The position numbers were made by a program, and so were the translations under genes. The notes below the pieces were generated by a model. That model was not told where the DNA came from, did not search any database, and worked only from the letters and a program-made list of their open reading frames with translations. This document shows, piece after piece, positions 23,581 through 50,375 of a stretch of 64,000 nt of DNA. The stretch spans positions 5,061-69,060 of the forward strand of contig CALBNX010000014.1 of NCBI GenBank assembly GCA_937896885.1, written 5' to 3'. Source of the DNA: an uncultured Clostridia bacterium. GTDB lineage: Bacteria > Bacillota > Clostridia > Oscillospirales > Acutalibacteraceae. How positions within the stretch are numbered: position 1 is the stretch's first letter; every line of letters begins with the position of its first letter.

Positions 23581-23586
23581 TTGTAA

Positions 23587-23846: not shown

Positions 23847-23877
23847 TTATTATATAAAGAGTTTTTGAGGTGATATA

Positions 23878-25574: not shown

Positions 25575-25588
25575 TAAATATTTCCTTT

Positions 25589-25999: not shown

Positions 26000-26029
26000 A
26001 TATTATCACTCCTTTTACTCTAAATTTAG

Positions 26030-26360: not shown

Positions 26361-26362
26361 CG

Positions 26363-26611: not shown

Positions 26612-26625
26612 AAGTTTCACATCCT

Positions 26626-27402: not shown

Positions 27403-27412
27403 CTTCTACACC

Positions 27413-31236: not shown

Positions 31237-31483
31237 AATATTGTTGGGTTGAAATGAAGTATCTCACTGCATATTTAATAAAATCCAATATCGTTGTTTC
31301 ATCTATACGGATAGTTAAAAAGCCGTAACACAAGGTTACAGCAATTGGAATTAACCATCTGAACTGTACCAAAACAACAATGGATAAAAGCAGAGACACT
31401 CCTAATATTGTAAAATCTTTAAGACTCCATAACCATAAGTTTGCAGTAGCTTTAAGGTTTTGAGGATATAGATATTGTGTCAT
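31223..31483 (-). CDS. PrgI/VirB3-like small membrane protein
   Basis: 86 aa with two TM helices. The N-terminus YLYPQNLKATANLWLWSLKDF is typical of PrgI-family proteins preceding VirB4. Confidence 0.6.
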   Translation of the reverse strand: MTQYLYPQNLKATANLWLWSLKDFTILGVSLLLSIVVLVQFRWLIPIAVTLCYGFLTIRIDETTILDFIKYAVRYFISTQQYYEWK

Positions 31484-31497
31484 TGTATTTCTCCTTT

Positions 31498-32427: not shown

Positions 32428-32443
32428 GCTCTACACCTCCGCA

Positions 32444-32776
32444 TCAGATAATTGTCCAGATGTACAATGGAGCGGTAAGTGTAAAGATAAGACAGGCAAA
32501 CAAGATACATGGTGCAGTAAATTCAAACTGTCCATGTTTCTTGTATTCAAAGTATGCTGTACCGACTTTTACGAAAAACAGGATTGCTAGAATCATGTCA
32601 ACCACAGGGAAGACTACATTGTTCACGACTTGTTGCACCTGACCTTTAGCCGCATTCCAAGTGTTTTCAATAGCACCTGCAACATCACCTGTGGCAAAAG
32701 ACATTACTGAAAAACTGCAAATGAGCAAAGCCACAAGCAGAATAATACCAGTTGTTTTTAAGTGTTTGTTTTTCAT
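32444..32776 (-). CDS. VirB2/TrbC-like pilin candidate
   Basis: Start at MKNKHLK with RBS AGGAGGTAA. Signal peptide then two hydrophobic helices, 110 aa. Immediately upstream of the VirB6-like gene. Confidence 0.5.
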   Translation of the reverse strand: MKNKHLKTTGIILLVALLICSFSVMSFATGDVAGAIENTWNAAKGQVQQVVNNVVFPVVDMILAILFFVKVGTAYFEYKKHGQFEFTAPCILFACLIFTLTAPLYIWTII

Positions 32777-32792
32777 AAGATTACCTCCTGAT

Positions 32793-35700: not shown

Positions 35701-36050
35701 AGACCATATTTCTCAAAGCGAGCAAGATTTGGAGCTTTGCCTGAAACTGTTGACACATTTACAACAGTTTCTGTACCTTCATTTGCAAAACCTGTATCAT
35801 AACTGATATTTGATAAGATACTATCAGCTACCATTGAACCGTATTTCTTGAAAATTTGTCCGTTATCTTTTAAGCCCTGCACATCGTATCCTGTATATGC
35901 CAACGCATCAAGATAGACATTATCAAGCATTTCATCGGGGATATCCGAAGCAGGAGCCGCAAATACCGTAACTGGAATTGTTGAAAATACCGATATTACG
36001 GCAAGAATAACTGCAAGTAATTTTTTGATATTAATATTTTTCTTGAACAT
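32793..36050 (-). CDS. Cell-wall-anchored adhesin with an N-terminal NlpC/P60- or CHAP-like domain and tandem Cna-B/SpaA-type repeats
   Basis: Signal peptide. Cys/His hydrolase-like segment GLCCASYCSYVY...VSHVGLYAG. Seven or more repeats of the G..F.(L/V)....(G)(T/K)Y.(V/L).E...P.GY type. C-terminus IPNTD followed by a TM helix and RKDEE (sortase-signal-like). Confidence 0.75.
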   Translation of the reverse strand: MFKKNINIKKLLAVILAVISVFSTIPVTVFAAPASDIPDEMLDNVYLDALAYTGYDVQGLKDNGQIFKKYGSMVADSILSNISYDTGFANEGTETVVNVSTVSGKAPNLARFEKYGLCCASYCSYVYFNYLPNIAGVGTSDYIRPTNLKSSGAWSTAAEKWVESGLAREIKFKQSSDGKTFTADEEIPIGSLIVFTASGTVSHVGLYAGKYNGKNFITHVGNSRGPEIITLEGLSKNGAAELVSSVIVPEIIEENGVIEIYKKDTNGKALSGAVFVATHKETGIQYKIGPTNSNGYAVSQERLPYGTYTVKETVFPTNYQASGQSEWTVTVNSSNKGTVTINAINEQIPGKVQIVKTSEDNKIDGISFRIIGNGVDKTVKTENGGKITISDLKPGTYTITETVEDKYEPQETRTVTVVSGQTSTITFNNTLKRGNLEVTKTSEDGLNEGVKFHLYGTSHSGLKVDEYAVTDKNGIAIFNDVLIGNNYTLEEVDTDSKYVVPESQNANIQWNKITEKSFHNVLKKFTVTVTKTDAEKGYAQGDATLSGAVYGVYYGEKLVDKYTTDANGKFTTKEYVCGDNWTLREITASEGYLLDETVHKICAESKNYTVEKNTLSMNVTEQVIKGNIAIIKHSDNGSTQIEHPEVGAEFQVYLKSAGSYNKAKETERDAIVCDKNGFTQTKDLPYGTYTVHQTKGTEGREFIADFDVVINTDGQTYRYLINNANLESYVKVIKKDSETGKTVPYAGAGFKIYDPDGKLVTMTYTYPTPTTIDTFYTDANGSLITPERLPYGKGYSLIEVQAPYGYVIDRNPVSFDITADTAKEDGGIIVVVIEVENKPIRGTIVGKKIDEDGFAIAGAVFGLFNESETEFTEETALMISTSNEIGVFGFENVSYGKWIIHELKSPPSFKLNPTVYKVKVMEDGEVIELVVENKFILGSVEVTKVDEDNPEIKLSGAIFELYVDVDGNKEFNPEIDILIGELKEDEVGVYIMNDLRHNGYFIHEKSAPDGYIKDNDYHYFEITEDGMLIELKITNEKIPKPKVPVPDIPNTDASWRLSFWVGMTAIAFGGLVAYVIITIKRKDEE

Positions 36051-36121
36051 ATATATCGTCCTTTCAAATAGAAAACTCTGCTACATTAAGTAACAGAGTT
36101 CCTTTTCATATATATTTTATT

Positions 36122-36919
36122 TTATAAATTGTCGCTATTTTCCATAGCAACTGCTATATCGCAATACCACATTCCACTTTCGTATGTGATTCCTATGCCG
36201 ATATATTTGTATCGACTGTCACCAACATACGCCCAGTGTCCTGAACTGTTCCTTGTGAGTGTTGCAAATTTCTTTGCTATCTCATCAGCCGTTCCTACAT
36301 ACCCAGCCTTTGCTATTGCTTCGCCAGCATTAGCGGTGTAGTAGGGTTCACCTGACATACCATACAAGGATGGGTCAACATACTCACCATATTTGAGTGC
36401 AGTAGCGGCAGTTCGTTCATCTTCTGTATCATGAGCAAAGTTAGATATTAGTTGACGACTACGATGTTCTGCATATTTGGTTAATCCAGGAAGTTTAGTC
36501 GTTACGGGAGTACCTTGCTCTTTACGGTACTCGTTGATGTAATAAGCTAACCTTTCCGCTATTGCTTTCTCATCTGCCTTTGCAGCATACTGAGCAGGAC
36601 TTGTTGTTCCTGTTTCAGTTTCTTGTGGCTTGGTGGTAATTGTTGTATTTGTTGGTTTTGGCTTTAAACTTTTAACAGTTGTAGTTTCTTTACTGTCAGC
36701 ATTTTGACCACTTGTTATTTCTTCACTTTTAGGTTTTGTACTTTCTTCTGTAGGTTCGGTAGTGCTTTCAGTTGCTTCCTCAACTGTTTCTGGTTCGGTT
36801 GTGGATTCCTTTACCGTTACATTTGATTGGGTAGTGGTAGTCTGTTCTTCAGTATTTCTGCATCCTGTTATGCTTAGAAGGAGTGCTATGCATAGAAACA
36901 TTGATAATGCTCTTTTCAT
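36122..36919 (-). CDS. Lipoprotein with a CAP/SCP (PR-1-like) domain
   Basis: Start at MKRALSMFLCIALLLSITGC (lipobox) with RBS AGAGGTGAA. Thr/Glu-rich linker. The C-terminal segment YINEYRKEQG...GHWAYV...YIGIGI is CAP-like. Confidence 0.6.
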   Translation of the reverse strand: MKRALSMFLCIALLLSITGCRNTEEQTTTTQSNVTVKESTTEPETVEEATESTTEPTEESTKPKSEEITSGQNADSKETTTVKSLKPKPTNTTITTKPQETETGTTSPAQYAAKADEKAIAERLAYYINEYRKEQGTPVTTKLPGLTKYAEHRSRQLISNFAHDTEDERTAATALKYGEYVDPSLYGMSGEPYYTANAGEAIAKAGYVGTADEIAKKFATLTRNSSGHWAYVGDSRYKYIGIGITYESGMWYCDIAVAMENSDNL

Positions 36920-36986
36920 AATTTTCACCTCTAACTCATACAATACACAAAAATTTTCAAAAGTCCAGCAAAATTGCGAATGTTTT

Positions 36987-37370
36987 TTACATATCCTGAG
37001 AAACAGCTTCATCCTGTGTAACATCTTCACTCTGCGTCTGATTTTCTCTCATTTCTAACTGTTCTTCATAGGCCTTAAGAACAACGCTATTGAGTTCAGC
37101 ACGAGCTTCTGATGAGATTGGATGGCACACATCAGAATATTTCTGTTTGCCATCTTTTGTGTACTTGCTCTGTGGCATTGATACAAAAAGACCGTTTTTG
37201 GATTCAATTATCTTTACTCCATGAAAAGCAAAAGCATCCGCAATTGTGATACTCGCAACTGCCTTTACATTGCTATCTTCATAATCAACCATCTGTGTGA
37301 TTTTTGCTTTGATATTAAGAGATGGTTTCTGTTTGTTTGTATTCTTAAAATTTGATTTTTTGTTTGCCAT
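36987..37370 (-). CDS. SpoVG-family nucleic-acid-binding protein homologue
   Basis: VKAVASITIADAFAFHGVKIIESKNGLFVSMPQSKYTKDGKQKYSDVCHPISSEARAEL parallels the SpoVG core (..VHDIRVIEG..GLFVAMPS.R..DG.FRDIAHPI). Confidence 0.6.
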   Translation of the reverse strand: MANKKSNFKNTNKQKPSLNIKAKITQMVDYEDSNVKAVASITIADAFAFHGVKIIESKNGLFVSMPQSKYTKDGKQKYSDVCHPISSEARAELNSVVLKAYEEQLEMRENQTQSEDVTQDEAVSQDM

Positions 37371-37385
37371 AATAACTATCCTTTC

Positions 37386-38075
37386 TTAACCATAATAAAT
37401 TATGAATCCCATATCATTTTGAACATCTTCTTCGGGGATTTCTTCAGGTTCGGAGAAGCGTTCCATATATTTCTGTGCTTCTTCATCTGTAAGGGAGCAG
37501 AAGTCATCTTCTGTCAAGCCCACCACAAAGAAAGAGCCAGCGATAATTGAAGAGCCATCACCGATACGGCGATTACCATCAAGACCCATAAGTTTGCCTT
37601 CTTCATTACAGATAATGGCAGTACCATCCTCGTTGTAAACAATTTCGATAAGTCCACCAACTGCTTTCTGTTCGGCATCAAGTGTGTGTTCAATTTCAGA
37701 AACAAAAGGTTTTCTGTGAGGTTCAACATACACAACTTGCATCAGGTTGTCCTGTTTGTGAACAAGTGATTCATCAAAGTCAATCTTTGCAAAACCGATA
37801 CGGTCACAGTAATAGAATCCAGCTTCAAGGTCATTGATGTTTTCTTCGAGTTTTACCACATCTGATACAGAGAGTGCGTGACCTCTATGTAACGGATGAC
37901 CGTCTGTATTGAACTTTTTGAACACATCTTCGAGTGTGTTGCTATCGACATCACCCATAAATACTTCGTTATACAAAGATGCATCGACCTTGTTATCTTT
38001 GAGACGATTAAGGGATTGAAATTTAGCACCAACATTATCTCGATTGGTGTCAATCTGATAAATTTTAATATTCAT
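37386..38075 (-). CDS. Conserved ICE protein of unknown function
   Basis: 229 aa with no catalytic motif recognised. The N-terminus MNIKIYQIDTNRD resembles YodL-like domains seen on conjugative elements; this comes from memory. Confidence 0.4.
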   Translation of the reverse strand: MNIKIYQIDTNRDNVGAKFQSLNRLKDNKVDASLYNEVFMGDVDSNTLEDVFKKFNTDGHPLHRGHALSVSDVVKLEENINDLEAGFYYCDRIGFAKIDFDESLVHKQDNLMQVVYVEPHRKPFVSEIEHTLDAEQKAVGGLIEIVYNEDGTAIICNEEGKLMGLDGNRRIGDGSSIIAGSFFVVGLTEDDFCSLTDEEAQKYMERFSEPEEIPEEDVQNDMGFIIYYG

Positions 38076-38079
38076 AATA

Positions 38080-38382
38080 TTAAACCTCCATTTTCATATT
38101 GGTTTGCTGTTCTGCCCACATTACTGAAAGGTGAACAAGTGCGGCTCTCTGTTGCTCGGCAGAAAGACCATTGAGGAAGTCATAAAGTGTAACTTCGTCA
38201 TCTTTTTTAGTATGTCGCTGACTGCAATTATCACAGATTTTTTCTTTTTTCACTGTAACCGAACTACCATCAGGGTTTTCTGTGAAAGACAATACATCGT
38301 TATAACTGAATCCGATTCTCTGTCTGATTTCAAACGGAATGGTAATTCTTCCTCGTTTACCAAGAATTCTGAATAGTTTCAT
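38080..38382 (-). CDS. AbrB/SpoVT-type DNA-binding protein
   Basis: Start at MKLFRILGKRGRITIPFEIRQRIGF, a swapped-hairpin AbrB-like N-terminus. Confidence 0.55.
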   Translation of the reverse strand: MKLFRILGKRGRITIPFEIRQRIGFSYNDVLSFTENPDGSSVTVKKEKICDNCSQRHTKKDDEVTLYDFLNGLSAEQQRAALVHLSVMWAEQQTNMKMEV

Positions 38383-38651
38383 TACATCACATCCTTTACA
38401 CATTCCTCACAAAAATCGAAGCAAGGGCAGTTAGCACAATCTTCATCACAATCCATATTGAAAAATTCACATTCTTCGCAATTGCCGTCGCAGATGTAAT
38501 CATCTTCGTTTTCTGCAGCTTTAATTACAATAGTTCCTTTTCGAGCACTGATATATAAAATACCAGCCTGACCTGCACCAGCTTCTTCAAATATTTCAGT
38601 TGGAATTGCCAAAAGGACATATTCATTTGAATTTAGTTTTTTATCTTGCAT
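38382..38651 (-). CDS. Small acidic cysteine-rich protein
   Basis: Start at MQDKK with RBS AAGGAGTG. The C-terminal ~40 aa carry 11 Cys (DDYICDGNCEECEFFNMDCDEDCANCPCFDFCEECV). Confidence 0.45.
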   Translation of the reverse strand: MQDKKLNSNEYVLLAIPTEIFEEAGAGQAGILYISARKGTIVIKAAENEDDYICDGNCEECEFFNMDCDEDCANCPCFDFCEECVKDVM

Positions 38652-39652
38652 TGAACAATACACTCCTTTAAGATTTTTTCATAATTCACATCATCTTCTT
38701 TAATACCGTTATGAAGATTGAATAAAGTCATTTGCTTGGGTTTTGCTTTTTCTCTTTCGTATAAATCGTAATTACCGATAAGTAATTCTTTGAATTCTTT
38801 CCCGGCATCATATCGTTGAGCCATAGAGTGAGTACGAGAGAAATCAAGCATTGGAAAACCTTTATACAACTTCCTGATTTCAGGGCAATCGTTGTAGGAC
38901 AACAAAAACTTTCCATTGATATTTTTCAAGGTATCACGAAGCCTTACATGGTCATCCCATCCGAACTCAATCGCATACATATCTTCAGTAGAGAAATATG
39001 GCGGGTCAAGATAGAAGAAGGCATCATTTCTGTCATAGTGTCTAATCAGAGTTTCAAAGTCCTGATTTTCAACAACCACATTTGCCATTCTGTTTTCAAG
39101 TTCCTGAATAAGACCGAATAGTTTCCGTATATCAAATGGCTGTGAAGCGAAGGATTTACAACTACTTGAATAACTATAACGGAGCAATTTCAAAAACATT
39201 GAAGCTCTGCGTACATCATAATCTTTCGTTATCCTTGTACGGATTTCTTTAAGTTCATCTGCTTCAGGAACAGGGAATGACAACTCTGTCAATTTAAGTT
39301 CTTCCGAAAGGTATTCATCGCTGAACTGCTCATGGTCAAAGAACCTGCGGATTGCGATAAAATCCTCCCGGGAGTTTAGATTGCAGAAACCTAACTCACG
39401 AATTGTAGCCACTGTGCGTTCTTTCATACAATGAAAGAGGTTAGCTAAATTTCGGTCAAAGTCGTTATACACCTCAAAGGGATGTATTTCGGGTTTACCA
39501 AGTAACACACTACCTGAACCACCGAATACATCAATAAATCTGCCATAATTCACGGGAAATACGGCATAAAGAATATGTAGGATGGAAGATTTATTTCCCA
39601 CCCTTGATACAGGAGTTTTAATATTAACCACCTTACTTTCGTAAGGCATCAA
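38633..39652 (-). CDS. Orphan N6-adenine DNA methyltransferase (Dam / D12 class)
   Basis: Motif I FIDVFGGSGSV, NDFDRNLANLF, motif IV FFYLDPPYF. No adjacent endonuclease gene. Confidence 0.8.
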   Translation of the reverse strand: MMPYESKVVNIKTPVSRVGNKSSILHILYAVFPVNYGRFIDVFGGSGSVLLGKPEIHPFEVYNDFDRNLANLFHCMKERTVATIRELGFCNLNSREDFIAIRRFFDHEQFSDEYLSEELKLTELSFPVPEADELKEIRTRITKDYDVRRASMFLKLLRYSYSSSCKSFASQPFDIRKLFGLIQELENRMANVVVENQDFETLIRHYDRNDAFFYLDPPYFSTEDMYAIEFGWDDHVRLRDTLKNINGKFLLSYNDCPEIRKLYKGFPMLDFSRTHSMAQRYDAGKEFKELLIGNYDLYEREKAKPKQMTLFNLHNGIKEDDVNYEKILKECIVQCKIKN

Positions 39653-39708
39653 TCGTTCAAAACAAAAAGAGGTATCAATCTGTTAAAAACGATTGATACC
39701 GTAAATCT

Positions 39709-39813
39709 TTATCTATTCATATCTTCGTCAGATTTTGAAGCCGCATTGCAAAACGCCATTGCAATAATGCCAATCATACTGCCGACAACACAACCAATAA
39801 AAAATGCGAGCAT
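39709..39813 (-). CDS. Unannotated 34 aa hydrophobic peptide (MLAFFIGCVVGSMIGIIAMAFCNAASKSDEDMNR)
   Basis: RBS AGAGGTGAAAAT then ATG at 39813, stop at 39709-39711. Followed on the minus strand by the hairpin GGTATCAATC..GATTGATACC. Confidence 0.4.
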   Translation of the reverse strand: MLAFFIGCVVGSMIGIIAMAFCNAASKSDEDMNR

Positions 39814-39824
39814 ATTTTCACCTC

Positions 39825-41492
39825 TTAAATCATTTCATTGTCATAACTATGTGTTGATTCAATACAATGTTGCTCGAATGCAGAACCAACAGGAGTATGT
39901 AAATCAGGATGACCTGCATTAGTAATTGTGTATTCTTCAACTGTTATTACCGTTTCGGAAACATGAATATCTTTTAAGTATTTATGCACACCAAAGCAAC
40001 CCGTACCTAATGTTGTTACATGAGATGGAACAACAAATGCCTCAATGTTTTTACCCTGTGGATAGAAGTATAGTTTTGTTGTGTCTTTGCTATACAAAGC
40101 ACCATCAATAATGCATAAGTTTTCATTATTTTCTGAAACACTAAAGTATTCAACTGAACGCATATCTGCCAAAGCATTACCTTCGATGGTAGTTACTGTG
40201 TCAGGAATCTCTAATGTTTTAATTTTGCTACAGTATTGAAGTGCATATTTTTCAATTGTTGTTACACCAGATGGAATTTCAATACTTTCAAGAGATATAC
40301 ATGAGTAAAGGAGACCATAACTGAGTTTTGTAATTCCTTTCGGAATATTAATACTCTTTAATGCTTTACATTCACTAAATGCTCTATCTGCCATTGTTGT
40401 AACTGTTTCAGGAATTACAATACTTTCAAGTGCATAAGCATATCTGAATGCCCATAAGCCAATTGATTGTAAACCATAAGGTAAACTGACATTGGCAAGT
40501 AAATCACATTCACTGAAAGCAGAACTCCCAATGGATTTAACATTCTTTCCTACGACAAGAGTTACAAGACCTTTACAACGCGAAAAACTGCTGCTTGAAA
40601 CAGTCGTTAAACTTTCTGGAAGAATAACTTCAGTAAGAGCATAGCATTCATAAAAAGCTGAACTGCCAATGGTTTTAACGCTATTTGGAAAGTCAACATT
40701 ATTAAGCGCATGACATCTGTTAAATACATTATCTGCAATGATGGTTAAACTTTCAGGGAAGTCAATTGTTATTAAGTTTTCGCATTCATAAAAAGCACAT
40801 ACACCAATATTAATAATGCCTTCTTTGATAAGTGCGGTATTAAGTGTTTCTTTGTTCAAAGAGAATTCAGACTCTCTCGCATTCCAACCTTTCATTCTAC
40901 CGTCACTGTCATCGCCATTTTTAGTAACAAGAACAGCGGAATAATCCTCAGTAAACTGTGCGACAACATATTCAGGCTTTGTTGCACCAATACCGAAAAG
41001 TAACGGATTTTCATCGATTTCTTCAACGGTATAGTCTGTCTGTGTAATTTCTTTAACATCCACATTAAAGGTTACTGTTGCAGTATATACACCTGAATAG
41101 TTTACATCGCTTGAGGTTTTTGCAGTGAGTGTTGTTACTGCATCGTCACTTGCACCTGCTATCTGTTTGAGAACACTATCACCGGATGTGACTTCTTCAT
41201 CATCGGCATAAAAGGTATAAGGAATTGTAATGCCATTTGCTTCACGAAGTTTTAGTTGATTATCAAATTTTGCAGAAATATTCACTTCATATCCAAATGG
41301 AATAACCGCATCAGCGATTTTCACTTCTTGTCCGTCTGCATTAGCTTCAATATATTCAGGAAGGGTAACTGTGTAGCTACTTTCTACTGTATAATCTAAT
41401 GTTGCCGTTTTGCTTTCTGCAGCAAAGGAGGTTAACGGGAATGCCGTAAGGAGCGTGAGCAGAACGCAAAACATTGAGATAATTTTTTTCAT
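39825..41492 (-). CDS. Secreted BspA-type leucine-rich-repeat surface protein
   Basis: Signal peptide. About 12 repeats of the I(G/A)..AF..C..L..I.(I/L)P type, e.g. IGVCAFYECENLITIDFPESLTII and IGSSAFYECYALTEVILPESLTTV. Confidence 0.75.
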   Translation of the reverse strand: MKKIISMFCVLLTLLTAFPLTSFAAESKTATLDYTVESSYTVTLPEYIEANADGQEVKIADAVIPFGYEVNISAKFDNQLKLREANGITIPYTFYADDEEVTSGDSVLKQIAGASDDAVTTLTAKTSSDVNYSGVYTATVTFNVDVKEITQTDYTVEEIDENPLLFGIGATKPEYVVAQFTEDYSAVLVTKNGDDSDGRMKGWNARESEFSLNKETLNTALIKEGIINIGVCAFYECENLITIDFPESLTIIADNVFNRCHALNNVDFPNSVKTIGSSAFYECYALTEVILPESLTTVSSSSFSRCKGLVTLVVGKNVKSIGSSAFSECDLLANVSLPYGLQSIGLWAFRYAYALESIVIPETVTTMADRAFSECKALKSINIPKGITKLSYGLLYSCISLESIEIPSGVTTIEKYALQYCSKIKTLEIPDTVTTIEGNALADMRSVEYFSVSENNENLCIIDGALYSKDTTKLYFYPQGKNIEAFVVPSHVTTLGTGCFGVHKYLKDIHVSETVITVEEYTITNAGHPDLHTPVGSAFEQHCIESTHSYDNEMI

Positions 41493-41551
41493 AACTTTTC
41501 TCCTTAATTAAGATTAATAGCCCCAAGGCAAGAAGGGGCTACAGTAATTAC

Positions 41552-42079
41552 TTAGGCTACAGATACTACGAAGTTTGCAGTGTTTGCATACATGCCTGAA
41601 TAGATTGGTGCTTCAGTAAGAATACCACCGATTGCAACAGTTGTTACGCTTGTTGGGTTACCTGCATCAACAGTAAGGATTGTATCGCCTGTGTTGATAT
41701 CAGAACCATCTACCTGAAGACCATATCCGATTGTTACTTCACCGTTATCTCTCAATTTGAGCTCATCATTGTATGTGATGTCAATTGAAAGAGTTGTGTT
41801 GTATGGAATAAGAACTTCTTTAGCAGTAATGTTCTGTGTAACAGGGCTCTTATTCATTGGAGCAGCTTCAATGTAGTCAGGGATTGTTACTTTATATGTA
41901 CCTGATACTTCATCGTCTGTTGGGTCATCGAGGTCATTCGGATTACCAAATTCACCAATTTTGTAATATACGGTTGAGTCACCTGATGGGGCGGTCTGGT
42001 CAAGTTCACCTGCAAATGCAGTTACTGACATAAGGCAAAGAGCCATAACGAGTGTGATAATTGTAATAAGTCTTTTCAT
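41552..42079 (-). CDS. Secreted protein paralogous to the N-terminal domain of the LRR protein
   Basis: Signal peptide. YKVTIPDYIEAAP...ELKLRDNGEVTIGY...YSGMYANTANFVVSV aligns with YTVTLPEYIEANA...QLKLREANGITIPY...YSGVYTATVTFNVDV of ORF 39825-41492. Confidence 0.55.
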   Translation of the reverse strand: MKRLITIITLVMALCLMSVTAFAGELDQTAPSGDSTVYYKIGEFGNPNDLDDPTDDEVSGTYKVTIPDYIEAAPMNKSPVTQNITAKEVLIPYNTTLSIDITYNDELKLRDNGEVTIGYGLQVDGSDINTGDTILTVDAGNPTSVTTVAIGGILTEAPIYSGMYANTANFVVSVA

Positions 42080-42144
42080 AATTTTTTACCTACCTTTTTA
42101 AATTTTTGATATATATCTTCGGTTATCTTGCCTGCGTATAACCG

Positions 42145-42882
42145 TCAGATAACATTGATTGTGATTTTTGTATCTGCTGAATTCATCTTTGCTCCTGTTT
42201 CAAGCTCATTTGTAAGAATTGAAACAAATGCCGTACATGTACCTTTTTCTAAAGGTTCATTGATTTTGATTCTTTTGATTTCATTACCAGGTGGAACATG
42301 GTCTGACTGGTAAAGTACAGTTCCATCTTCCAAGGTGATAATGAAGGTGAAATAACAGGGATTACCGTCAGGGTTTTTGAGTGAGATAGGTAGATTTCCT
42401 GTTTCGCCAGCTTTTACGTTCCATTCGGTAAATCCACAGATTGTTATTTGATTTCTTTCTGCTTCTTCTGTCGTTTCTTCAATATCCACAAACTGTTCAA
42501 TTACTGGATTCCAAGGTTCGTCATCAACCGTTGGCTCGTTTGGATGAAACATTGTGAGCAAGCAGAGAAGTATTGCTATTAAAAGGATGAATGGCAAGAG
42601 ACTTGGTCTGATAATAGCGTAATAGTTGTCATCATTTCCTTTTACATATCCTCTTACTACAGAGAACATAGGCCTTTCTTTAAATAAATCAAAAGAATTC
42701 TTTTCAGTCTGAATAGTATTCTCTGTACGAGATTTCCTGAAATGAAAAAAACCTTGAATGGATGTTTCATCACACTCAAGGCTCTTAAATCTCTTTTTGG
42801 ATATATAGCGAATTGCTTCTTTTTGATATTTTATGACTTTGTCGTAAGCAGGGTCATTTCTCTTAATCTGAACTATATTCAT
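42145..42882 (-). CDS. Single-pass membrane protein
   Basis: Central TM helix LLPFILLIAILLCLLTMF with a beta-rich C-terminal ectodomain. Confidence 0.5.
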   Translation of the reverse strand: MNIVQIKRNDPAYDKVIKYQKEAIRYISKKRFKSLECDETSIQGFFHFRKSRTENTIQTEKNSFDLFKERPMFSVVRGYVKGNDDNYYAIIRPSLLPFILLIAILLCLLTMFHPNEPTVDDEPWNPVIEQFVDIEETTEEAERNQITICGFTEWNVKAGETGNLPISLKNPDGNPCYFTFIITLEDGTVLYQSDHVPPGNEIKRIKINEPLEKGTCTAFVSILTNELETGAKMNSADTKITINVI

Positions 42883-42903
42883 AATGACTTTCCTTTCTTT
42901 TAA

Positions 42904-43473
42904 TTACATTTGTGGCTCATAATCTTCATCGGCATCTTCGTTCATTTCGTCATCTGATGTGATGTTTACATACTCACCGATAACATAAAGAGCTTCTTCA
43001 TAACTGCCGGATGCTTTTACCTTATCACGCATCTCTACTGCTTGTTCAGCCATTCCGTTATCACGGAGTGTCTTTGAAGCAATGCCGATAAGATTGAAGA
43101 TGTTACCATCCTTACCAATAAGAGGACAGTCAGGTTTGTGCTTTTTCTCAGCATAACCACCCAACTGGTTTGGTATGAAATCTGAAAGCCATGTGCCGCC
43201 AAATGAATTGTATGTATGCAATCTCCAGATGGCGAATTTACCGATATCAAGTTCCACATCATCAAACGGGAATAACAGACAAGTCAAGTCATTATGAGTG
43301 AAGCTCTGACAGTCAGTAAATTTTGTGTTATTCAAAAGAATACCATGTTTAGTCAATTCTTCATTAATTCCGTCAACCCATTCCTGAAGGTCACCACCGC
43401 AACCCTGAAGAATTAAACCTTCCTTTTCATTCATTTGAGGAATAGCATCAGTTGTAATGTTTGTAATACTCAT
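42904..43473 (-). CDS. Hypothetical ICE protein
   Basis: 189 aa, acidic C-terminus, no motif recognised. ATGA-type overlap with the upstream gene. Confidence 0.45.
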   Translation of the reverse strand: MSITNITTDAIPQMNEKEGLILQGCGGDLQEWVDGINEELTKHGILLNNTKFTDCQSFTHNDLTCLLFPFDDVELDIGKFAIWRLHTYNSFGGTWLSDFIPNQLGGYAEKKHKPDCPLIGKDGNIFNLIGIASKTLRDNGMAEQAVEMRDKVKASGSYEEALYVIGEYVNITSDDEMNEDADEDYEPQM

Positions 43474-44543
43474 AAACTTAATTCTCCTATATCTTCGGAT
43501 TCGTCCTCATCAACATCTTCAGGCATCGTGTAATCACCGTCAATGTAGTCACCGAAAGTAACTGAATCATCACCAACAAAATGAGGTTTTGTGTCTTCAT
43601 CAAAGGCAATGAACTTCTGAATACCTAAATCAAGTTTTTCATTGATGACAATAGTACCGCCGAAGTTTACTGTTACGTTTTCTTCCAATGTACTGTATTC
43701 TCCGGAATCATCTGTACGGATATGGTAATAGTGAAGAGCTTTTGGAACATCGTGGTCAGTCAATTTTTTATCTGAATACAATGCAGGTTTACCAAGAACT
43801 TCGACAAGCTCATAGTCACCATAATGAACAGAGATATAGTCATTTTCTGCAATATTGAGAACAAGACCAATTTCTTCGAGGTCATAGTCCATAACTTTTG
43901 CCGCAAATTCAATGGCTACTTTATCACTTTCGGGATAATACTCTGATACAAGTTCACCATTTTCGTATTCCCATCTGCCACAGTTCTGACCGATATCTTC
44001 GTCAGCCCATTCATGACTGAATTTAATATTAGGAAACATTTCAGCAAGCTTATTAATGACAGGGTGAGGTGATGACCATGCAGTTGTGAAATACAGAGCA
44101 TCCATTTTGGCGTAGGACATATCCTCACTATAGCCATAGGAATTCCACTTTGTACCCCAGTTATTGATACTCCACTCATACCATGTTGAGTAGCCATACT
44201 GATAAGCATTCTGGAATGCTTTCTTTCCTAATTCCCAATCTCCTCGTTCAATATCCTTGCGGATTTCAAGGAATTTTTCTTCACTTTCAGCAGGGACATT
44301 AAGTAAATCTAAATTCTCAACTTTTCTCCCGAAAGTATAAATTTCGAGGAATTCCTTGTATGCTTTAAGGCCTCTGTCTGTCCTGCTACCACTTTCAATA
44401 TTTAGTGATTCAGGCATTGGAATGAGTTTGTTAAAGTCAATAGTACCGATACCGAATTCGTCAACTTTAATCTGCTCAAGCATTTCTTTGATTCTGTCGG
44501 CATCGCCCTCATATTTAACTATGTTAGTAATATGGTTTGGCAT
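43470..44543 (-). CDS. Hypothetical ICE protein
   Basis: 357 aa. The N-terminus MPNHITNIVKYEGDADRIKEM resembles DUF1281-like plasmid/ICE proteins (from memory). Acidic C-terminus. Confidence 0.4.
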   Translation of the reverse strand: MPNHITNIVKYEGDADRIKEMLEQIKVDEFGIGTIDFNKLIPMPESLNIESGSRTDRGLKAYKEFLEIYTFGRKVENLDLLNVPAESEEKFLEIRKDIERGDWELGKKAFQNAYQYGYSTWYEWSINNWGTKWNSYGYSEDMSYAKMDALYFTTAWSSPHPVINKLAEMFPNIKFSHEWADEDIGQNCGRWEYENGELVSEYYPESDKVAIEFAAKVMDYDLEEIGLVLNIAENDYISVHYGDYELVEVLGKPALYSDKKLTDHDVPKALHYYHIRTDDSGEYSTLEENVTVNFGGTIVINEKLDLGIQKFIAFDEDTKPHFVGDDSVTFGDYIDGDYTMPEDVDEDESEDIGELSL

Positions 44544-44637
44544 TTTTGTTTCTCTCCTTTATTAGTTATTTCCGAAAAAAGGCATAAAAAATCGGACTAC
44601 CTAAAGGTATCCGAGACTTCCATACTTTTATTCAATT

Positions 44638-44949
44638 TTACATTTCTATAACTGGATTATTATCTTCGTCCACATCATCGATATCTTGTGTTGTGTCTTG
44701 TTCTTCTGCAAGTTCCTGTTCGGTGAGTTTGCGAAAGGAATCTTCGCCTGGGACAAGACCTAACTGTCTGCCATTGTCAAAACTGCAATGGACAGTACCG
44801 AGTGAGTCAACTGTTCTTACAGTTCCTCTTGTGTTCGGCGGAATTGGTCGTGGGTCATCACCCATGTGCAAAAGCAACACTCTCGTTCTAGCGGGATATT
44901 GCTTTTTATATGTTTCCGCCTGTCTGCTCAATCTTTCCCATTCGTTCAT
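44638..44949 (-). CDS. DUF4314-like small protein
   Basis: RVLLLHMGDDPRPIPPNTRGTVRTVDSLGTVHCSFDNGRQLGLVPGEDSF matches the DUF4314 pattern common on Firmicutes conjugative elements. Confidence 0.55.
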   Translation of the reverse strand: MNEWERLSRQAETYKKQYPARTRVLLLHMGDDPRPIPPNTRGTVRTVDSLGTVHCSFDNGRQLGLVPGEDSFRKLTEQELAEEQDTTQDIDDVDEDNNPVIEM

Positions 44950-45067: not shown

Positions 45068-45267
45068 ACTGTTGTTAATATAAGATATTCATCCTCAAAT
45101 AAAATTTCGATTATTTTTATATAGATATACATTACTTGATTTTGTTGTAATAAATAGATATAATAATATGTAGTATTTTATCACAATATGTCTTTTTTTA
45201 TATTGTGATTTGAAATCAATTTTGAGAGATAGATGATTATCTCTGTGCGGAAAAGGAAGGATACAAT

Positions 45268-48200
45268 ATGGCAAGCAAAGAAATGAAGATTCATATTGAT
45301 TTACTAAAACGCAGAGGCAACTTTTTTACCAATATAGGCTTATTAATTTCAATAAATAATGGAGATGACTATTATAATATAATAAAAAAGTATTTTACAG
45401 ATTCTAATCCAATTAATAGAAAATCTTTTTTTCACAATAATTATAATGATGTATTAGAATATACCCCTACTGGACAAACCGCTAACTTATTAAAAATGTT
45501 ATTATGGAGTAGTACTATTATATCTTTCTATAAAGAAGAAATTGTAAATTTTGTTTCCATAAAGAAAAAATTTGATTATTATGTTTTAACCGGAGATTAT
45601 GAAAACGCATTAAAAGAATTGGATTACATAGAAAACAATATAAGCTTTTCTATGTGGTCACTCAAAAATAGAATAATGCTTGCTAACTTAAGAGGCGACA
45701 GAGTTGATGAATATATTAATTCCTTGAATTTAAATAAATATGCAACATCACATGCTAACTTATATGCTCATTTTACAAAAGTTGAGTGTAATGTTAATGA
45801 ATATATTAAAAATATAGAACATATTACTAATACTTTGCCAAAAGATTATGTAAATTGTTTTTTATATCTATATGGTGATGTTGATGATATAGAAATTGAA
45901 AACTATTCTAATGTTTTAGCATATTGTAATGCTTATTCAATTATTGATAGCTATCTTTGCATTAAAAGAATTCTACATAGTTATTTATCAACAGAAGAGT
46001 TTGAAAACAAGCTAATACAAAAAAGCATAGATATCTTATCATGCATAGAGAACGATGATGAACTATTACTTTTTATATCACACAACATCCCTAAAGATAT
46101 GAATATGTCTTCTTCCTGTGAAAGATTATTTGCTGATTTTAGTCATAAGAATTATGAAAAAATCTTTATAAATCGAAATAACTATTTACTAGATATCTCA
46201 GCATGTAGTCTCATAAAAATTATTATTATCACGATATCTGGTATTCTTTCTAATAAAATTGATAATAATTTTTCAGAAAAAAGCATTTTGGATTCCATTA
46301 TTCTTTCTTTATACAGAGTTTTAAAGTCTGATAACCTATATGATTTTCGTATTGGATTGTCAAAAATGGAAAGTTATAATAGAGTATTACGTTGGTTTGA
46401 TATATCAAATCCCTTAGGTCTCTTTTGGAAGAATTGTTTAAGTTATATAGAGGAGAATCCGATAGAAAAATGCTTTTCTATCGATGATAAAATACTTTAT
46501 AATAAGATTGTAGATTTACAAGTTCCGCCAATCTTTTTCGAATCGCTTTATCATTATACAAAAATGGATTTTGATTATTCTGATATTAAAAAAGATTTTA
46601 CTGATAATGAGAATAATATCTTTATAATATCATTGCTTTACATACAATATTATGTCGCGCTAGGCAAAAAGGACTACTATTTTGCTACTGATATTTTCTC
46701 AAAGGCTATTGCTAATTTTACTCCATTAATATATAGATTTAGAGTTGATGAAGTTTGTAAACATGTTATAAATAATATTACTATAAAAGAATCAGTAACA
46801 ATAAGTGATGTTATTTTTTCCTTCAATGTGAATGATTTAAAACCATACAAACTTATAGCTTATAAGAATTTTTTGGATGAAAACAACATTGTAAAGCCTT
46901 TAGAGATTATTAATTTGCCTATAGATAAGCAGCTTAAAATATATTTTCTTAAAGAAATTTGCACGATTGACACAATGACATGTCTCTATGTTACATTTCC
47001 TAATAGTAATGAGATTGAAAACCATAGAATAGAAATCTGCAAATTCTTACTTGAGAATGATCCTTCAAATAAAGGCTCATATGGTAAAGAAATATCAGAA
47101 ATATTAAAAGAACAAGAAGTAAGAAAATTAAACAAAACTATTGATAAGTCTAAATTAAGTATAGATTACCAATATATTTTAGATAAAACATATGAACAAT
47201 TCTTAGATTTAACTAAAATGTATTATGATACTAGACCAGATGCAATAGAGTATGTTTCTTTTTCGTCACCAATGATTATCAGCACTGAACCACAAAGTTG
47301 GCGTTTTATTGCTTTGTCTCGCGATATTGTACTCGAAAATATGTATAAAGTATATGCCGCAGAGTTCTGTTTTGGAAGCAGGGGCCTTGATACATACCTT
47401 AGTACACGAGTACGACATGGAACTTTTGAAAACACAATAAAGAAAGTGTTTATAGAAAATAATCTATATAACACTGAAAACAATTTTTTTAAATCTATGT
47501 TTTCAAAAGAGCATGTTTCACAAAAAATTACGGAGGTTATAAAAGACTTTAGAGAACAATTACTTAATAGGATTCATGTTTTGACAAACACAACATTTAA
47601 AGTATTTATTGAAAATGAGATAAAAGGAGCTCTTTTCGATTATTATATGGATACAAAAGATGTAGCAATAATATACAAACAATTGAATTTAAAAGAATCA
47701 TTTTCAGTTCTTGATTTTATAAACATTATTTCGGATACAATAGTAATAAAAACAAACGAATATCTTGCGTTTATTAGAGACGCTGTTTTAGAAAATCTTA
47801 AAAGCGAGATTATTGACTTGTTAGATAATTTAAATGCCGATGTAGAAATCTACTGCTTGGAAGCTTCAGCACTTTCTAATATTAGAAATAACATATCTAG
47901 AAGCAAAACAAACATTCAAAACAAAATAGATGATATAAAAAATTGGTTTTACCTATCCGAATCAATTCCTATGGAAAACTATACAATTGACAAATTGATT
48001 GATGTGTTAAACAAGAATTTATGTCAGCAGTTTGATGATTTTAATTTAATTGATTTAAAAACTAACAACTCTATTTCAAAAGATTTTGTAGGTGAATCTT
48101 TCGTTTATCTTTACGATATACTGCACATTCTTTTGTCAAATGCAATTATTCATTCAAAATTTGAAAATTTAAATGAATTGAAAATTATTTTGGAGACAAC

Positions 48201-48486
48201 AGAAATTAGTGATGAATATGTTTCATTCTGTATAAAAAATAATTATTCTGAAGCATGTAGTCGTGAGCAAGTGGAAGAATCAATTAGAAAAATTAATAAT
48301 ATTTATGTAAATAGAGAATACACAAAAGTAGATACCCACAAAGAAGGCGGAATGGGCCAAATAAAAGTTTTAGATATTTTATATAATATTTTAAATGTCG
48401 GGAATACTTTTGAGGCAGTATGTGATTCTGATAATTATGAAATAAAGTTTACTATTTCAAAAAAAGGAGTAATTGCCTGTGATTAA
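45268..48486 (+). CDS. dtcA: Detocs DtcA-like sensor: large helical-repeat N-terminal region plus a histidine-kinase-type GHKL ATPase
   Basis: RBS AAGGAAGGA. 1072 aa with no TM helix or signal peptide. The N-terminal ~650 aa are Tyr/Leu/Asn-rich and helical-repeat-like. Candidate phospho-His in LSTRVRHGTFEN (His codon 47416-47418). N-box ILLSNAIIHS and G-box HKEGGMGQIKV at the C-terminus. Confidence 0.7.
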   Translation: MASKEMKIHIDLLKRRGNFFTNIGLLISINNGDDYYNIIKKYFTDSNPINRKSFFHNNYNDVLEYTPTGQTANLLKMLLWSSTIISFYKEEIVNFVSIKKKFDYYVLTGDYENALKELDYIENNISFSMWSLKNRIMLANLRGDRVDEYINSLNLNKYATSHANLYAHFTKVECNVNEYIKNIEHITNTLPKDYVNCFLYLYGDVDDIEIENYSNVLAYCNAYSIIDSYLCIKRILHSYLSTEEFENKLIQKSIDILSCIENDDELLLFISHNIPKDMNMSSSCERLFADFSHKNYEKIFINRNNYLLDISACSLIKIIIITISGILSNKIDNNFSEKSILDSIILSLYRVLKSDNLYDFRIGLSKMESYNRVLRWFDISNPLGLFWKNCLSYIEENPIEKCFSIDDKILYNKIVDLQVPPIFFESLYHYTKMDFDYSDIKKDFTDNENNIFIISLLYIQYYVALGKKDYYFATDIFSKAIANFTPLIYRFRVDEVCKHVINNITIKESVTISDVIFSFNVNDLKPYKLIAYKNFLDENNIVKPLEIINLPIDKQLKIYFLKEICTIDTMTCLYVTFPNSNEIENHRIEICKFLLENDPSNKGSYGKEISEILKEQEVRKLNKTIDKSKLSIDYQYILDKTYEQFLDLTKMYYDTRPDAIEYVSFSSPMIISTEPQSWRFIALSRDIVLENMYKVYAAEFCFGSRGLDTYLSTRVRHGTFENTIKKVFIENNLYNTENNFFKSMFSKEHVSQKITEVIKDFREQLLNRIHVLTNTTFKVFIENEIKGALFDYYMDTKDVAIIYKQLNLKESFSVLDFINIISDTIVIKTNEYLAFIRDAVLENLKSEIIDLLDNLNADVEIYCLEASALSNIRNNISRSKTNIQNKIDDIKNWFYLSESIPMENYTIDKLIDVLNKNLCQQFDDFNLIDLKTNNSISKDFVGESFVYLYDILHILLSNAIIHSKFENLNELKIILETTEISDEYVSFCIKNNYSEACSREQVEESIRKINNIYVNREYTKVDTHKEGGMGQIKVLDILYNILNVGNTFEAVCDSDNYEIKFTISKKGVIACD

Positions 48487-48922
48487 TAAGATTTTAGTTG
48501 TAGAAGATGATGCATTAAAAGGTCGTCAAATAGTTAATTTCACAAAATCAATTAACAACAATATAATAATCACTCAAAAAGGTGCATTAAATTCTGGACT
48601 TATAGAGTTAACTAAAAATGAATATGATTTGGTTATTCTCGATATGAGTTTACCGACTTTTGACAACAATGAATCAGAACATTTCCAGCCTTATGGTGGA
48701 TTGTTGTTTTTAGATGAGGTGAAAAGAAAGAAATATAAAGTACCGGTTGTGATAGTGACTCAATATGCCTCTTTTGGAGAAGGAGAAGGCGAAACAACGC
48801 TTGAAGAAATTGATTTAAATTGTAAAAACAAATATCCAAATTTCAAAGAAATAATCTACTATTTAGATGATGATTGGCAAGAGAAGTTAAAGACATACAT
48901 TGTAGGTGAAAATGATGATTAG
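48473..48922 (+). CDS. dtcB: Detocs DtcB-like stand-alone receiver (REC) protein
   Basis: Overlaps the dtcA end. The likely start is GTG 48479, 9 nt after AAGGAG. REC motifs ILVVEDD, DLVILDMSLP and PVVIVTQ. No output domain. Confidence 0.75.
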   Translation: MPVINKILVVEDDALKGRQIVNFTKSINNNIIITQKGALNSGLIELTKNEYDLVILDMSLPTFDNNESEHFQPYGGLLFLDEVKRKKYKVPVVIVTQYASFGEGEGETTLEEIDLNCKNKYPNFKEIIYYLDDDWQEKLKTYIVGENDD

Positions 48923-50117
48923 AATTCTTTTTATTGATGATAATATTGAACGAACACAGGAAATTGCTAGTTGGTTAGATGAGTATCAAATAGAAAATGA
49001 TAGCGAATTCGCTGTAACAAAAGATGATGCATTAAGAAAACTAAGCTGTAACCAGTACGACTTGGTAATCGTTGATATTGTTCTACCCGAAAGTATGAAA
49101 ACACTAGGATTTTCAAAATCTGCAGGTTTGGATATTGTTAAAGAGATATGTTTTAGCAGAACCGTTATCCGTCCATTGTTTTTATTGGGTATAACTTCAA
49201 ATCAAGAAAGCTATGATGCTGTAAAAAACGAGTTTGACAGCAGTTTCATACCATTATCTATTTGGGAAATAGGTGATGATAATTGGAAAACAAAATTAAT
49301 TGCGAAAATTAAATATCTTTCAAAATTAACGAATGAGTATAAGCCTATTAATAAAAATAAAGTAGATGTAGCAATTATTACAGCTGTCGATGATGAGTAT
49401 CATGCACTTGACGCTTTGCCAGTATGTTGGAGAGATGTAATAATACCATGTGACCCTCTTATATATTCAAGAGGCATATTAACCAGTGGAAAGATTATTT
49501 TGAGAGTAAAACTGCCAGAAATGGGAATGAGTGCTGCTTCACATGTTACAACTAGAATTATAGAGTTGTTTGAACCTAAATCAGTCATAATGACTGGAAT
49601 TTGTGGTGGAAATAAAGGCGAAGTAGATTTGGGGGATGTTGTTGTAGCAGAGAGAACATGGGACTATGGTTCAGGGAAGATAAAAAAAGGAGAAGATGGG
49701 AAAATAACTTTTTCTGCCTTGCCAAACCAAATTGGTATTGATACGATATTGCGAAGTGATATTGAACGAAATTCAAAAATAATAAGCAAGATATGTGACG
49801 AATGGAATACGACGAAAAATGATGATAAAAGTTCTTCGATAAAAATAGGTGCTATAACAACAGGTTCTGCTGTTGTGGCAAATAGAGATATTATCGATGC
49901 AATTATTGAACCTCAATACAGAAAGGTATTGGGTATAGATATGGAAACATATGGCGTGTATTTTGCATGCGAAAAGACAGGGAGAAACATAAAATTTGTT
50001 TCAATTAAGGCAGTTTCTGATTTGGCTGATGTAGAAAAAGACGATTCGTATCACAATTTTTGTTCATATGTAAGTGCAAAATTTGCTTTTAAATTAGTTG
50101 AACTGGATATTTTATAA
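48906..50117 (+). CDS. dtcC: Detocs DtcC-like effector: receiver domain fused to a PNP_UDP_1 (nucleoside phosphorylase / MTA-nucleosidase-like) domain
   Basis: Overlaps the dtcB end. REC motifs ILFIDDN, DLVIVDIVLP and LGITSN. Phosphorylase-fold motifs VDVAIITAVDDEYHAL, MTGICGG, GDVVVAE, GIDMETYGV and IKAVSDLAD. Confidence 0.8.
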   Translation: MKMMIRILFIDDNIERTQEIASWLDEYQIENDSEFAVTKDDALRKLSCNQYDLVIVDIVLPESMKTLGFSKSAGLDIVKEICFSRTVIRPLFLLGITSNQESYDAVKNEFDSSFIPLSIWEIGDDNWKTKLIAKIKYLSKLTNEYKPINKNKVDVAIITAVDDEYHALDALPVCWRDVIIPCDPLIYSRGILTSGKIILRVKLPEMGMSAASHVTTRIIELFEPKSVIMTGICGGNKGEVDLGDVVVAERTWDYGSGKIKKGEDGKITFSALPNQIGIDTILRSDIERNSKIISKICDEWNTTKNDDKSSSIKIGAITTGSAVVANRDIIDAIIEPQYRKVLGIDMETYGVYFACEKTGRNIKFVSIKAVSDLADVEKDDSYHNFCSYVSAKFAFKLVELDIL

Positions 50118-50185
50118 TACATAACAAATTATAAGGTATTTAATAACTTAACTATAACATAGACTTTAATAAAATTTTATATCAA

Positions 50186-50236
50186 AACAAAAATCCGAAA
50201 CCGTTGCCAATTGGCAATAGTTTCGGATTTTTTGTT
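50186..50236. terminator. Bidirectional terminator between convergent operons
   Basis: Stem AAATCCGAAAC / GTTTCGGATTT with the inner palindrome TTGCCAATTGGCAA. A-run on the left and T-run on the right. Confidence 0.75.
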
Positions 50237-50375
50237 TTGGTTGGAGCATAGGACGATTCCATTTAATATCTTGATTATAAAGTAAGCATTCATCACAGCT
50301 TAACTAATCCCAATATTATTCACTTGTTTATCGTTTACTAATTCTCACAAAAAAGTCAAGAAATGCATAGTAATA

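Follow-up and report, generated by a model that had tools for sequence, protein, structure and literature searches.

A three-gene operon at positions 45268-50117 of the window (i.e., the whole 64,000-nucleotide stretch of contig CALBNX010000014.1 from an uncultured Clostridia bacterium that was analysed here) very probably represents a complete Detocs system of the PNP type, composed of a large kinase (DtcA), a stand-alone receiver (DtcB), and a receiver fused to a nucleosidase-fold effector (DtcC). A listing of open reading frames (ORFs) presented three contiguous, overlapping plus-strand ORFs in the order dtcA-dtcB-dtcC:

45268..48486, plus strand: dtcA, sensor kinase of 1072 aa (ORF; PADLOC model PDC-M60A, E = 1.8e-43)
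48479..48922, plus strand: dtcB, stand-alone receiver of 147 aa, counted from GTG 48479 (PDC-M60B, E = 7.7e-31; Response_reg)
48912..50117, plus strand: dtcC, receiver plus PNP nucleosidase effector of 401 aa, counted from ATG 48912 (PDC-M60C, E = 1.4e-90; PNP_UDP_1)

All three proteins matched profiles of one and the same PADLOC system, PDC-M60, a candidate system that carries no name of its own in PADLOC v2; according to a survey paper, PDC systems were re-named upon a match with DefenseFinder calls. Experimentally validated Detocs proteins (sequences taken from Table S1 of bioRxiv 10.1101/2023.01.24.525353), i.e., DtcC and DtcB of Vibrio alginolyticus and DtcB and an N-terminal fragment of DtcA of Enterobacter cloacae, match the PDC-M60 models too, and PDC-M60 therefore corresponds to Detocs. 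The window DtcC presented 302 bits against PDC-M60C, as compared to 216 bits for the validated DtcC, and the window DtcB presented 105 bits against PDC-M60B, as compared to 62 and 96 bits for the validated DtcB proteins. A preliminary description of this DNA had read the operon as Detocs and had suggested that it would be a divergent variant if existing profiles missed it. The Detocs reading is borne out by the profile matches, the direct alignment to validated DtcB and DtcC, the kinase fold, and the conserved gene triad; the suggested divergence was not found, as the window DtcB and DtcC outscore the type proteins on existing profiles. Because these profiles recover it strongly, the operon is an ordinary, intact Detocs operon of an already-known type rather than a divergent variant, with nothing conceptually new. 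The published detection rule for Detocs asks for co-directional dtcA, dtcB, and dtcC genes with no more than one foreign gene between them (bioRxiv 10.1101/2023.01.24.525353); the window genes are contiguous and overlapping and follow this order. Among the six proteins scanned, PADLOC returned no system other than PDC-M60, SduA (a weak receiver match), pVip (E = 0.01), and PDC-S60.

A scan of species genomes, with a DtcC alignment as the query, returned 49 loci. The nearest were found in Acutalibacteraceae metagenome-assembled genomes (MAGs; 94% and 63% identity), a "Clostridium sp." MAG (56%), and an Oscillospiraceae MAG (54%), and distant ones (~30% identity) in Bacteroidota, Proteobacteria, Planctomycetota, and Acidobacteriota. 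Judged by these nearest loci, the DNA most likely belongs to a gut bacterium of the Acutalibacteraceae or Oscillospiraceae (Bacillota, Clostridia); exact-sequence look-ups gave no record for the window DtcC or for the neighbouring radical-SAM protein. The order dtcA-dtcB-dtcC was present in ~30 loci from five phyla (Clostridia and the four just named). In all loci with a full-length DtcC, the gene directly upstream is DtcA-like and is separated from dtcC by ~450 bp, an interval that contained a receiver ORF in many loci, and the contigs of close DtcA relatives also retain the triad. The triad loci recovered include Jannaschia helgolandensis DSM 14858, which appears as a Detocs carrier in the searchable parts of the published genome tables; Clostridia (C. 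pasteurianum and Lachnospiraceae bacterium A4) are also represented in these parts, as are streptococci, and no Acutalibacteraceae or Oscillospiraceae were found in them (bioRxiv 10.1101/2023.01.24.525353). In comparisons with two related loci (designated L001 and L002), the three window genes presented dN/dS ratios of 0.04-0.17 (0.14-0.17 for dtcA, 0.04-0.09 for dtcB), and dtcA, dtcB, and dtcC are therefore maintained by purifying selection. The window adds an intact PNP-type Detocs system from an uncultured gut Acutalibacteraceae/Oscillospiraceae lineage, which changes no concept and is useful for annotation and for picking Gram-positive Detocs representatives.

Domain organization of DtcA, DtcB, and DtcC

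Three regions of DtcA are referred to below:

45268..47184, plus strand: N-terminal all-alpha helical-repeat (solenoid) region, residues 1-639, the presumed sensor
47401..47421, plus strand: H-box STRVRHG, residues 712-718, with candidate phospho-acceptor His717 (R716 and H717 invariant)
47986..48483, plus strand: C-terminal alpha/beta GHKL/CA-like ATP-binding domain, residues ~907-1072 (predicted structure and motifs)

The long helical-repeat N-terminus proposed in the preliminary description was recovered as a confident all-alpha solenoid in the AlphaFold2 model of residues 1-639 (mean predicted local distance difference test, pLDDT, 90.8; predicted template-modelling score 0.88; helices throughout). 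Foldseek matches of this region were generic and non-significant, to TPR/ARM/HEAT-type folds, which is consistent with the published label "TPRs" without proving it. The absence of a transmembrane helix, also proposed before, mostly held; one hydrophobic stretch (residues 310-328) exceeds the Kyte-Doolittle threshold (19-residue mean 2.09) and was modelled as a buried helix within the confident solenoid. A word-index search identified 11 full-length close relatives of DtcA (36-94% identity); each of them originates from a metagenome or a Clostridia MAG and contains PF27260 "Y4jQ". When 1.84 billion representatives were searched with a profile, the DtcA family comprised 2850 clusters at 50% identity (1734 with E <= 1e-30), and the top matches mostly aligned over profile positions ~1-1070. 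The validated E. cloacae DtcA matched the hidden Markov model (HMM) of the window DtcA family through its N-terminal 399 aa (E = 2.1e-33), while the PDC-M60A match of the window DtcA spans residues 531-1034 only. The possibility of a novel N-terminal sensor was rejected, as most of the top family members align over their full length and the E. cloacae N-terminus matches.

A candidate phospho-acceptor histidine had been pointed out in the motif STRVRHG. This assignment gains support from conservation, as H717 is invariant in an alignment of 49 diverse DtcA sequences, together with R716, D950, N958 (N-box), N991, G1030, and K1033, and as a GLDxYLSxR[IV]RH motif was found in DtcA of nearly all Detocs loci examined, 335-377 residues before the C-terminus. 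The phospho-acceptor of V. alginolyticus DtcA is H645 (bioRxiv 10.1101/2023.01.24.525353), to which H717 would correspond, judged by its distance to the C-terminus (length of the Vibrio DtcA ~977 aa, derived from operon coordinates). Residues 640-1072 were modelled (pLDDT 84.6) as an alpha/beta domain preceded by a long hairpin of helices. Foldseek searches against the PDB with these residues returned 132 matches at E <= 1e-3, mostly to the dimerization/histidine-phosphotransfer (DHp) plus catalytic/ATP-binding (CA) region of histidine kinases, e.g., HK853, CpxA, ZraS, and bacteriophytochrome, and to the GHKL kinases PDK/BCK (E of 1e-6 to 1e-5 and probability 1.0 for both groups); the CA domain of ThkA matched with a TM-score of 0.68. 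ATP-binding motifs include the N-box Asn958 (within LLSNAIIHS, residues 955-963) and a G2-like EGGMGQIK at residues 1026-1033 (GGMGQ, 1027-1031). The classical G1 motif DxGxG is missing family-wide; its position is taken by an invariant Asn991, and the next residue is N, D, or E. The GHKL ATPase proposed previously was therefore recovered with regard to its N-box, G2-like box, and fold, and not with regard to a classical G1 box. Because the Pfam HATPase_c model misses the domain, this assignment is based on the predicted structure and on the N-box and G2-like motifs.

DtcB, described beforehand as a receiver without output domain, indeed scored above the Pfam cut-off for Response_reg (32.6 bits), matched PDC-M60B, and aligned with the validated V. 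alginolyticus DtcB (28% identity, E = 3e-10), including the conserved aspartate of ILDMSLP; its phospho-receiving residue is D57 (149-aa numbering). For DtcC, the description as a receiver joined to a PNP/MTA-nucleosidase fold was confirmed by PNP_UDP_1 (E = 3.4e-19), by the motifs of MTA nucleosidases, and by a full-length PDC-M60C match (residues 5-399); the receiver covers residues ~5-130 and the PNP domain residues ~155-398 (403-aa numbering). Sequence matches of DtcC in the PDB were 5'-methylthioadenosine/S-adenosylhomocysteine (MTA/SAH) nucleosidases, with the active-site residues of the ME (Glu) and SD (Asp) motifs aligned. DtcC aligned end-to-end with the validated V. alginolyticus DtcC (28% identity, E = 1e-36). 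The two residues mutated in the latter, D58 of the receiver and D353 of the PNP domain (bioRxiv 10.1101/2023.01.24.525353), align with D57 and D372 of the window DtcC; D57, E347 (ME motif), D372, and the GICxG loop are invariant in an alignment of five DtcC sequences.

The Detocs system of V. alginolyticus UCD-32C (Rousset et al. 2023) and the window operon consist of the same three genes, and the gene order is also identical. Its DtcC has the same length and the same receiver-PNP organization, with the receiver and catalytic aspartates common to both proteins, both DtcB proteins are receivers of ~149 aa, and both DtcA proteins are large soluble kinases with a conserved histidine ~335-355 residues before the C-terminus. 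In contrast to the Vibrio system, the window operon is an ICE-adjacent cassette (i.e., it lies next to an integrative and conjugative element) in a low-GC gut Clostridia host, and its DtcA N-terminus is without detectable similarity to the Vibrio protein. The Detocs-hydrolase system of E. cloacae JD6301 belongs to the same DtcA subfamily as the window (PADLOC model PDLC04723), and its DtcB matches PDC-M60B; its effector is a transmembrane alpha/beta hydrolase, whereas the window presents a PNP nucleosidase, the effector of the majority (about 80%) of Detocs systems (bioRxiv 10.1101/2023.01.24.525353).

Several observations weigh against the Detocs reading. The proteins are only 28% identical to characterised Detocs proteins, and no similarity was found between the N-termini of the Vibrio and window DtcA by direct comparison, hhalign, or HMM. 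DtcA presented no match to HisKA, HATPase_c, or TPR models (and no match at all) in a local Pfam copy, and none to the PDB with either the single sequence or a 14-sequence profile. His717 is located 241 residues before the N-box Asn, in a short helix-loop-helix modelled ~100 residues upstream of the DHp-like hairpin, and the G1 Asp is replaced by Asn991; in classical kinases, the histidine and the N-box Asn are roughly 105-115 residues apart. The receiver of DtcC fell below the Pfam gathering threshold (23.6 vs. 30.2 bits), and its PNP domain is no more than a candidate member of the clade of the CBASS effector Cap17, with matches to the PADLOC PN-superfamily "Effector" model and, over 52 aa, to a Cap17 fragment. 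The atypical kinase core is a trait of the DtcA family and not a peculiarity of the window locus. Because of the His-to-N-box distance, the universal G1 Asp-to-Asn replacement, and the missing HisKA and HATPase_c matches, we tentatively raise a proposal that we regard as rather doubtful, namely that the DtcA family may not act as a textbook histidine kinase. A distinct phosphorelay geometry (with a separate histidine module, CheA-P1-like or histidine-phosphotransfer-like) or an altered use of nucleotides could be involved. As a separate part of this proposal, the cassette appears to have undergone a recent exchange between ICE-flanking sites. The oddities of the kinase core across the family merit a structural or biochemical look.

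Operon boundaries and translation starts

The longest ORFs are located at 45268-48486 (1072 aa, ATG), 48473-48922 (149 aa, TTG), and 48906-50117 (403 aa, GTG), with overlaps of 14 nt between dtcA and dtcB and 17 nt between dtcB and dtcC. These coordinates and lengths agree exactly with those reported in the preliminary description, and all motifs quoted there were found in the translations, i.e., STRVRHG, LLSNAIIHS, and GGMGQ in DtcA, GICGG, GIDMETYG, and AVSDLAD in the third gene, and, one in each of the receivers, ILDMS and IVDIV. A Shine-Dalgarno-like AAGGAAGG precedes the dtcA ATG. Upstream of dtcB, GGAG (48466-48469) is placed 9 nt from GTG 48479 and just 3 nt from TTG 48473, and AGGTGA (48904-48909) precedes both ATG 48912 and ATG 48915; gene calls in relatives gave 147 aa (including dtcB of L001) and 400-401 aa. 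Given this spacing and these gene calls, translation probably starts a few codons downstream of the longest-ORF starts, at GTG 48479 for dtcB (147 aa) and at ATG 48912 or 48915 for dtcC (400-401 aa). With these starts the overlaps persist (8 nt between dtcA and dtcB, 8 or 11 nt between dtcB and dtcC).

The operon forms a self-contained promoter-to-terminator cassette of ~5 kb, delimited by two features:

45136..45164, plus strand: candidate promoter TTGATT-17 nt-TATAAT, ~104 nt upstream of the dtcA ATG
50184..50240, no strand assigned: bidirectional intrinsic-terminator-like hairpin with 27-nt arms, set between an A-run and a T-run

The promoter pair matches 10 of 12 consensus positions in a consensus scan that is not significant by itself. 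Its -35/-10 core and the ~20 nt that follow are kept in L001 and L002, where the remaining intergenic region has diverged, and this element probably promotes the operon. The hairpin is located just downstream of dtcC and is kept at 83-87% in L001 and in a further related locus (L005). A perfect inverted repeat with 10-nt arms (ATCACAATAT, a 10-nt spacer, and ATATTGTGAT) occupies 45180-45209, directly downstream of the -10 box just mentioned, and its left arm falls within the stretch kept in L001 and L002. This repeat could represent either an operator or a hairpin of the 5' untranslated region. A second hairpin with 14-nt arms is found farther upstream at 45036-45067.

Proposed mechanism, genomic context, and alternative roles

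The mechanism described for the characterised V. alginolyticus system (bioRxiv 10.1101/2023.01.24.525353) is the basis on which we infer the trigger, phosphotransfer, ATP substrate, and phage phenotype of the window system. Soluble DtcA would sense a cue of phage infection through its long helical-repeat N-terminus and would autophosphorylate at His717 via its GHKL-type ATP-binding domain. The phosphoryl group would then move to Asp57 of the DtcC receiver and release the fused PNP-fold nucleosidase (catalytic Asp372), which is predicted to cleave ATP and dATP to adenine together with (deoxy)ribose-5'-triphosphate, so that depletion of energy and dATP would abort the infection. DtcB, as a receiver without output, may compete for phosphate from a leaky DtcA and thereby prevent self-intoxication; this role as a phosphate sink against autoimmunity was put forward as a hypothesis in the same study (bioRxiv 10.1101/2023.01.24.525353).

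Upstream of the operon, the window contains the neighbouring ICE that had been noted previously (~18.2-44.9 kb):

18206..44949, mostly minus strand: conjugative element with conjugation, relaxase, and accessory genes

This element encodes a T4 coupling protein, a Toprim/DUF3991 primase, a MobL relaxase, a VirB4/TraG-like ATPase, and TrbL, as well as a 1085-aa adhesin with SpaA repeats, a BspA-type leucine-rich-repeat protein, a Dam methylase, and YodL/DUF3846, LPD28, and DUF4314 proteins; no integrase was identified among its scanned proteins (18206-44949), and no att repeats were found. The cassette has a GC content of 24-34%, as compared to 35-40% in its flanks, in line with the AT-rich DNA described before. 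Its context is mobile and defence-like, with the conjugative element upstream and a PDC-S60-like DUF4062 protein downstream. A "tRNA att scar" on the other side, as proposed in the preliminary description, was not supported, because an att site marked by a tRNA-derived repeat is missing: both tRNA genes (tRNA-Glu and tRNA-Met, 55324-55501) are intact, and no att-type repeat of either longer than 14 nt is present in the window, where only chance matches of 11-14 nt were found. An Rfam scan of 44-56 kb returned the two tRNAs and nothing else.

The location next to this element raises the possibility that the same Detocs machinery mainly serves the conjugative element, e.g., by stabilising it or excluding competing mobile elements, rather than acting in anti-phage defence. 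In both the window and L001, related conjugative elements (66-74% nucleotide identity) border the cassette with their DUF4314 end. The window and both L001 and L005 share 94.5-95% DNA identity over 45265-50148 and ~83% up to 50252, while the upstream ICE genes share only 66-74%; the higher identity of the cassettes (94.5%) as compared to the flanking ICE genes suggests that the cassette moves between ICE-associated sites. However, the cassette is found among housekeeping genes without an ICE in L002 and beside an integrase only in another related locus (L004), no att sites were found in the window that would place it inside or outside the borders of the ICE, and the characterised Detocs systems are chromosomal and act against phages (bioRxiv 10.1101/2023.01.24.525353). 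We therefore regard a role in service of the conjugative element as improbable and retain anti-phage Detocs as the preferred reading.

Slightly less probable still is a Detocs architecture whose effector acts on another substrate, e.g., NAD-related compounds, other nucleoside triphosphates, or MTA/SAH, instead of ATP/dATP. The extension of ATP specificity to the window DtcC is an extrapolation, because its identity to the characterised protein is only 28%; its PNP domain also matches NCBIfam models of MTA/SAH and futalosine nucleosidases, and its placement in the Cap17 clade is tentative, with 37% identity to a Cap17 fragment across just 52 aa. Conversely, DtcC scored 302 bits against the DtcC profile and no more than 68 bits against the housekeeping models, all below the curated equivalog cut-offs (best 67.9 vs. 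169 bits), and the PNP domain matches the PADLOC PN-superfamily "Effector" model (E = 1.2e-18), as the validated DtcC does. In addition, the PNP domains of Cap17 and DtcC that were tested both cleave ATP (bioRxiv 10.1101/2023.01.24.525353). Cap17, a TPALS-PNP ATP nucleosidase of CBASS, is a PNP-fold effector like the window DtcC; it is activated through a cyclic-nucleotide sensor domain, whereas DtcC would be activated through its N-terminal phospho-receiver. This N-terminal receiver sets DtcC apart from CBASS, and no CBASS match was found in the PADLOC scan of the six proteins. Compared to the MTA/SAH nucleosidase MtnN/Pfs, DtcC has the same fold and the same active-site motifs (ME Glu and SD Asp), but MtnN/Pfs is a stand-alone protein of ~230 aa, whereas DtcC is fused to a receiver, contains an insertion, lies in a mobile context, and fails all equivalog cut-offs.

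The window operon resembles phosphate-sink two-component systems, e.g., chemotaxis CheA/CheY1/CheY2, in which a second receiver without output competes for phosphate; the likeness extends to the His-to-Asp phosphotransfer logic and to the output-less second receiver. It differs from classical two-component systems in the lack of a HisKA/HATPase_c signature in DtcA, the 241-residue distance between H-box and N-box, the G1 Asp-to-Asn replacement, and the output of DtcC, which is a PNP_UDP_1 domain, i.e., a toxic enzyme and not a regulator. An ordinary regulatory or metabolic two-component system that tunes nucleoside salvage or quorum-sensing metabolism and has no immune role is highly improbable, as the histidine-kinase-like protein, the receivers, and an effector fold common to MtnN/Pfs, which would fit it, are accompanied by neither a DNA-binding output nor a membrane sensor, every MtnN equivalog cut-off was failed, the proteins belong to a validated defence family, and the distribution is patchy and horizontally transferred, with anomalous GC and mobile or defence-rich neighbourhoods.

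Neighbouring genes

Downstream of the Detocs cassette, a gene pair on the minus strand (50376-52095) encodes a radical-SAM protein and a phosphoribosyltransferase (PRTase)-like protein. The first gene (51352-52095) encodes a small divergent radical-SAM protein of 247 aa with CxxxCxxC at residues 11-18 and presented only weak matches to Pfam and to Rv2578c-type NCBIfam models. The second gene (50376-51347), which follows after 4 nt, encodes a protein of 323 aa that has a hydrophobic helix at its N-terminus and presented a weak match of the PRTase type. The pair presented no significant PADLOC match, the radical-SAM protein alone matching pVip with E = 0.01. Only 10 homologue clusters of this module were found, and the pair recurs with a spacing of 4-6 nt in three unrelated contexts: by an RHS toxin (L054), by TnpV and helix-turn-helix regulators (L057), and between Kiwa KwaA/KwaB and an ATPase_2/radical-SAM/UDG-SocA cluster (L058). 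The partner proteins of the recurring pair are 32% identical (E = 1e-51). As an uncharacterised candidate for a module of defence or mobility, the pair is a more promising nearby lead for novelty than the Detocs operon. Its role as a shared Detocs accessory was considered and rejected, as such genes beside the Detocs operon of L004 are unrelated to those of the window. A radical-SAM homologue (P0163) was also suspected to share a contig with a further Detocs locus (L007), as both contigs measure 13,297 bp, but the two contigs are different and their equal length is coincidental.

Farther downstream, a minus-strand gene (52958-54580) encodes a 540-aa DUF4062 protein, residues 7-172 of which match PADLOC PDC-S60 (E = 5.5e-27). 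The Pfam DUF4062 match is just above the cut-off (residues 44-100), and a weak signal similar to nucleoside 2-deoxyribosyltransferases was also found; the C-terminal ~370 aa presented no match in the PADLOC and Pfam scans. We regard this protein as a probable single-gene defence candidate whose C-terminus is novel.

A plus-strand gene at 11602-16905 encodes a protein of 1767 aa and of secreted type, which combines a dockerin with peptidoglycan-binding, Rv2525c-like glycoside-hydrolase, CARDB, and Listeria-Bacteroides repeat domains. Its dockerin suggests that the host background is cellulosome-associated or Ruminococcus-like.

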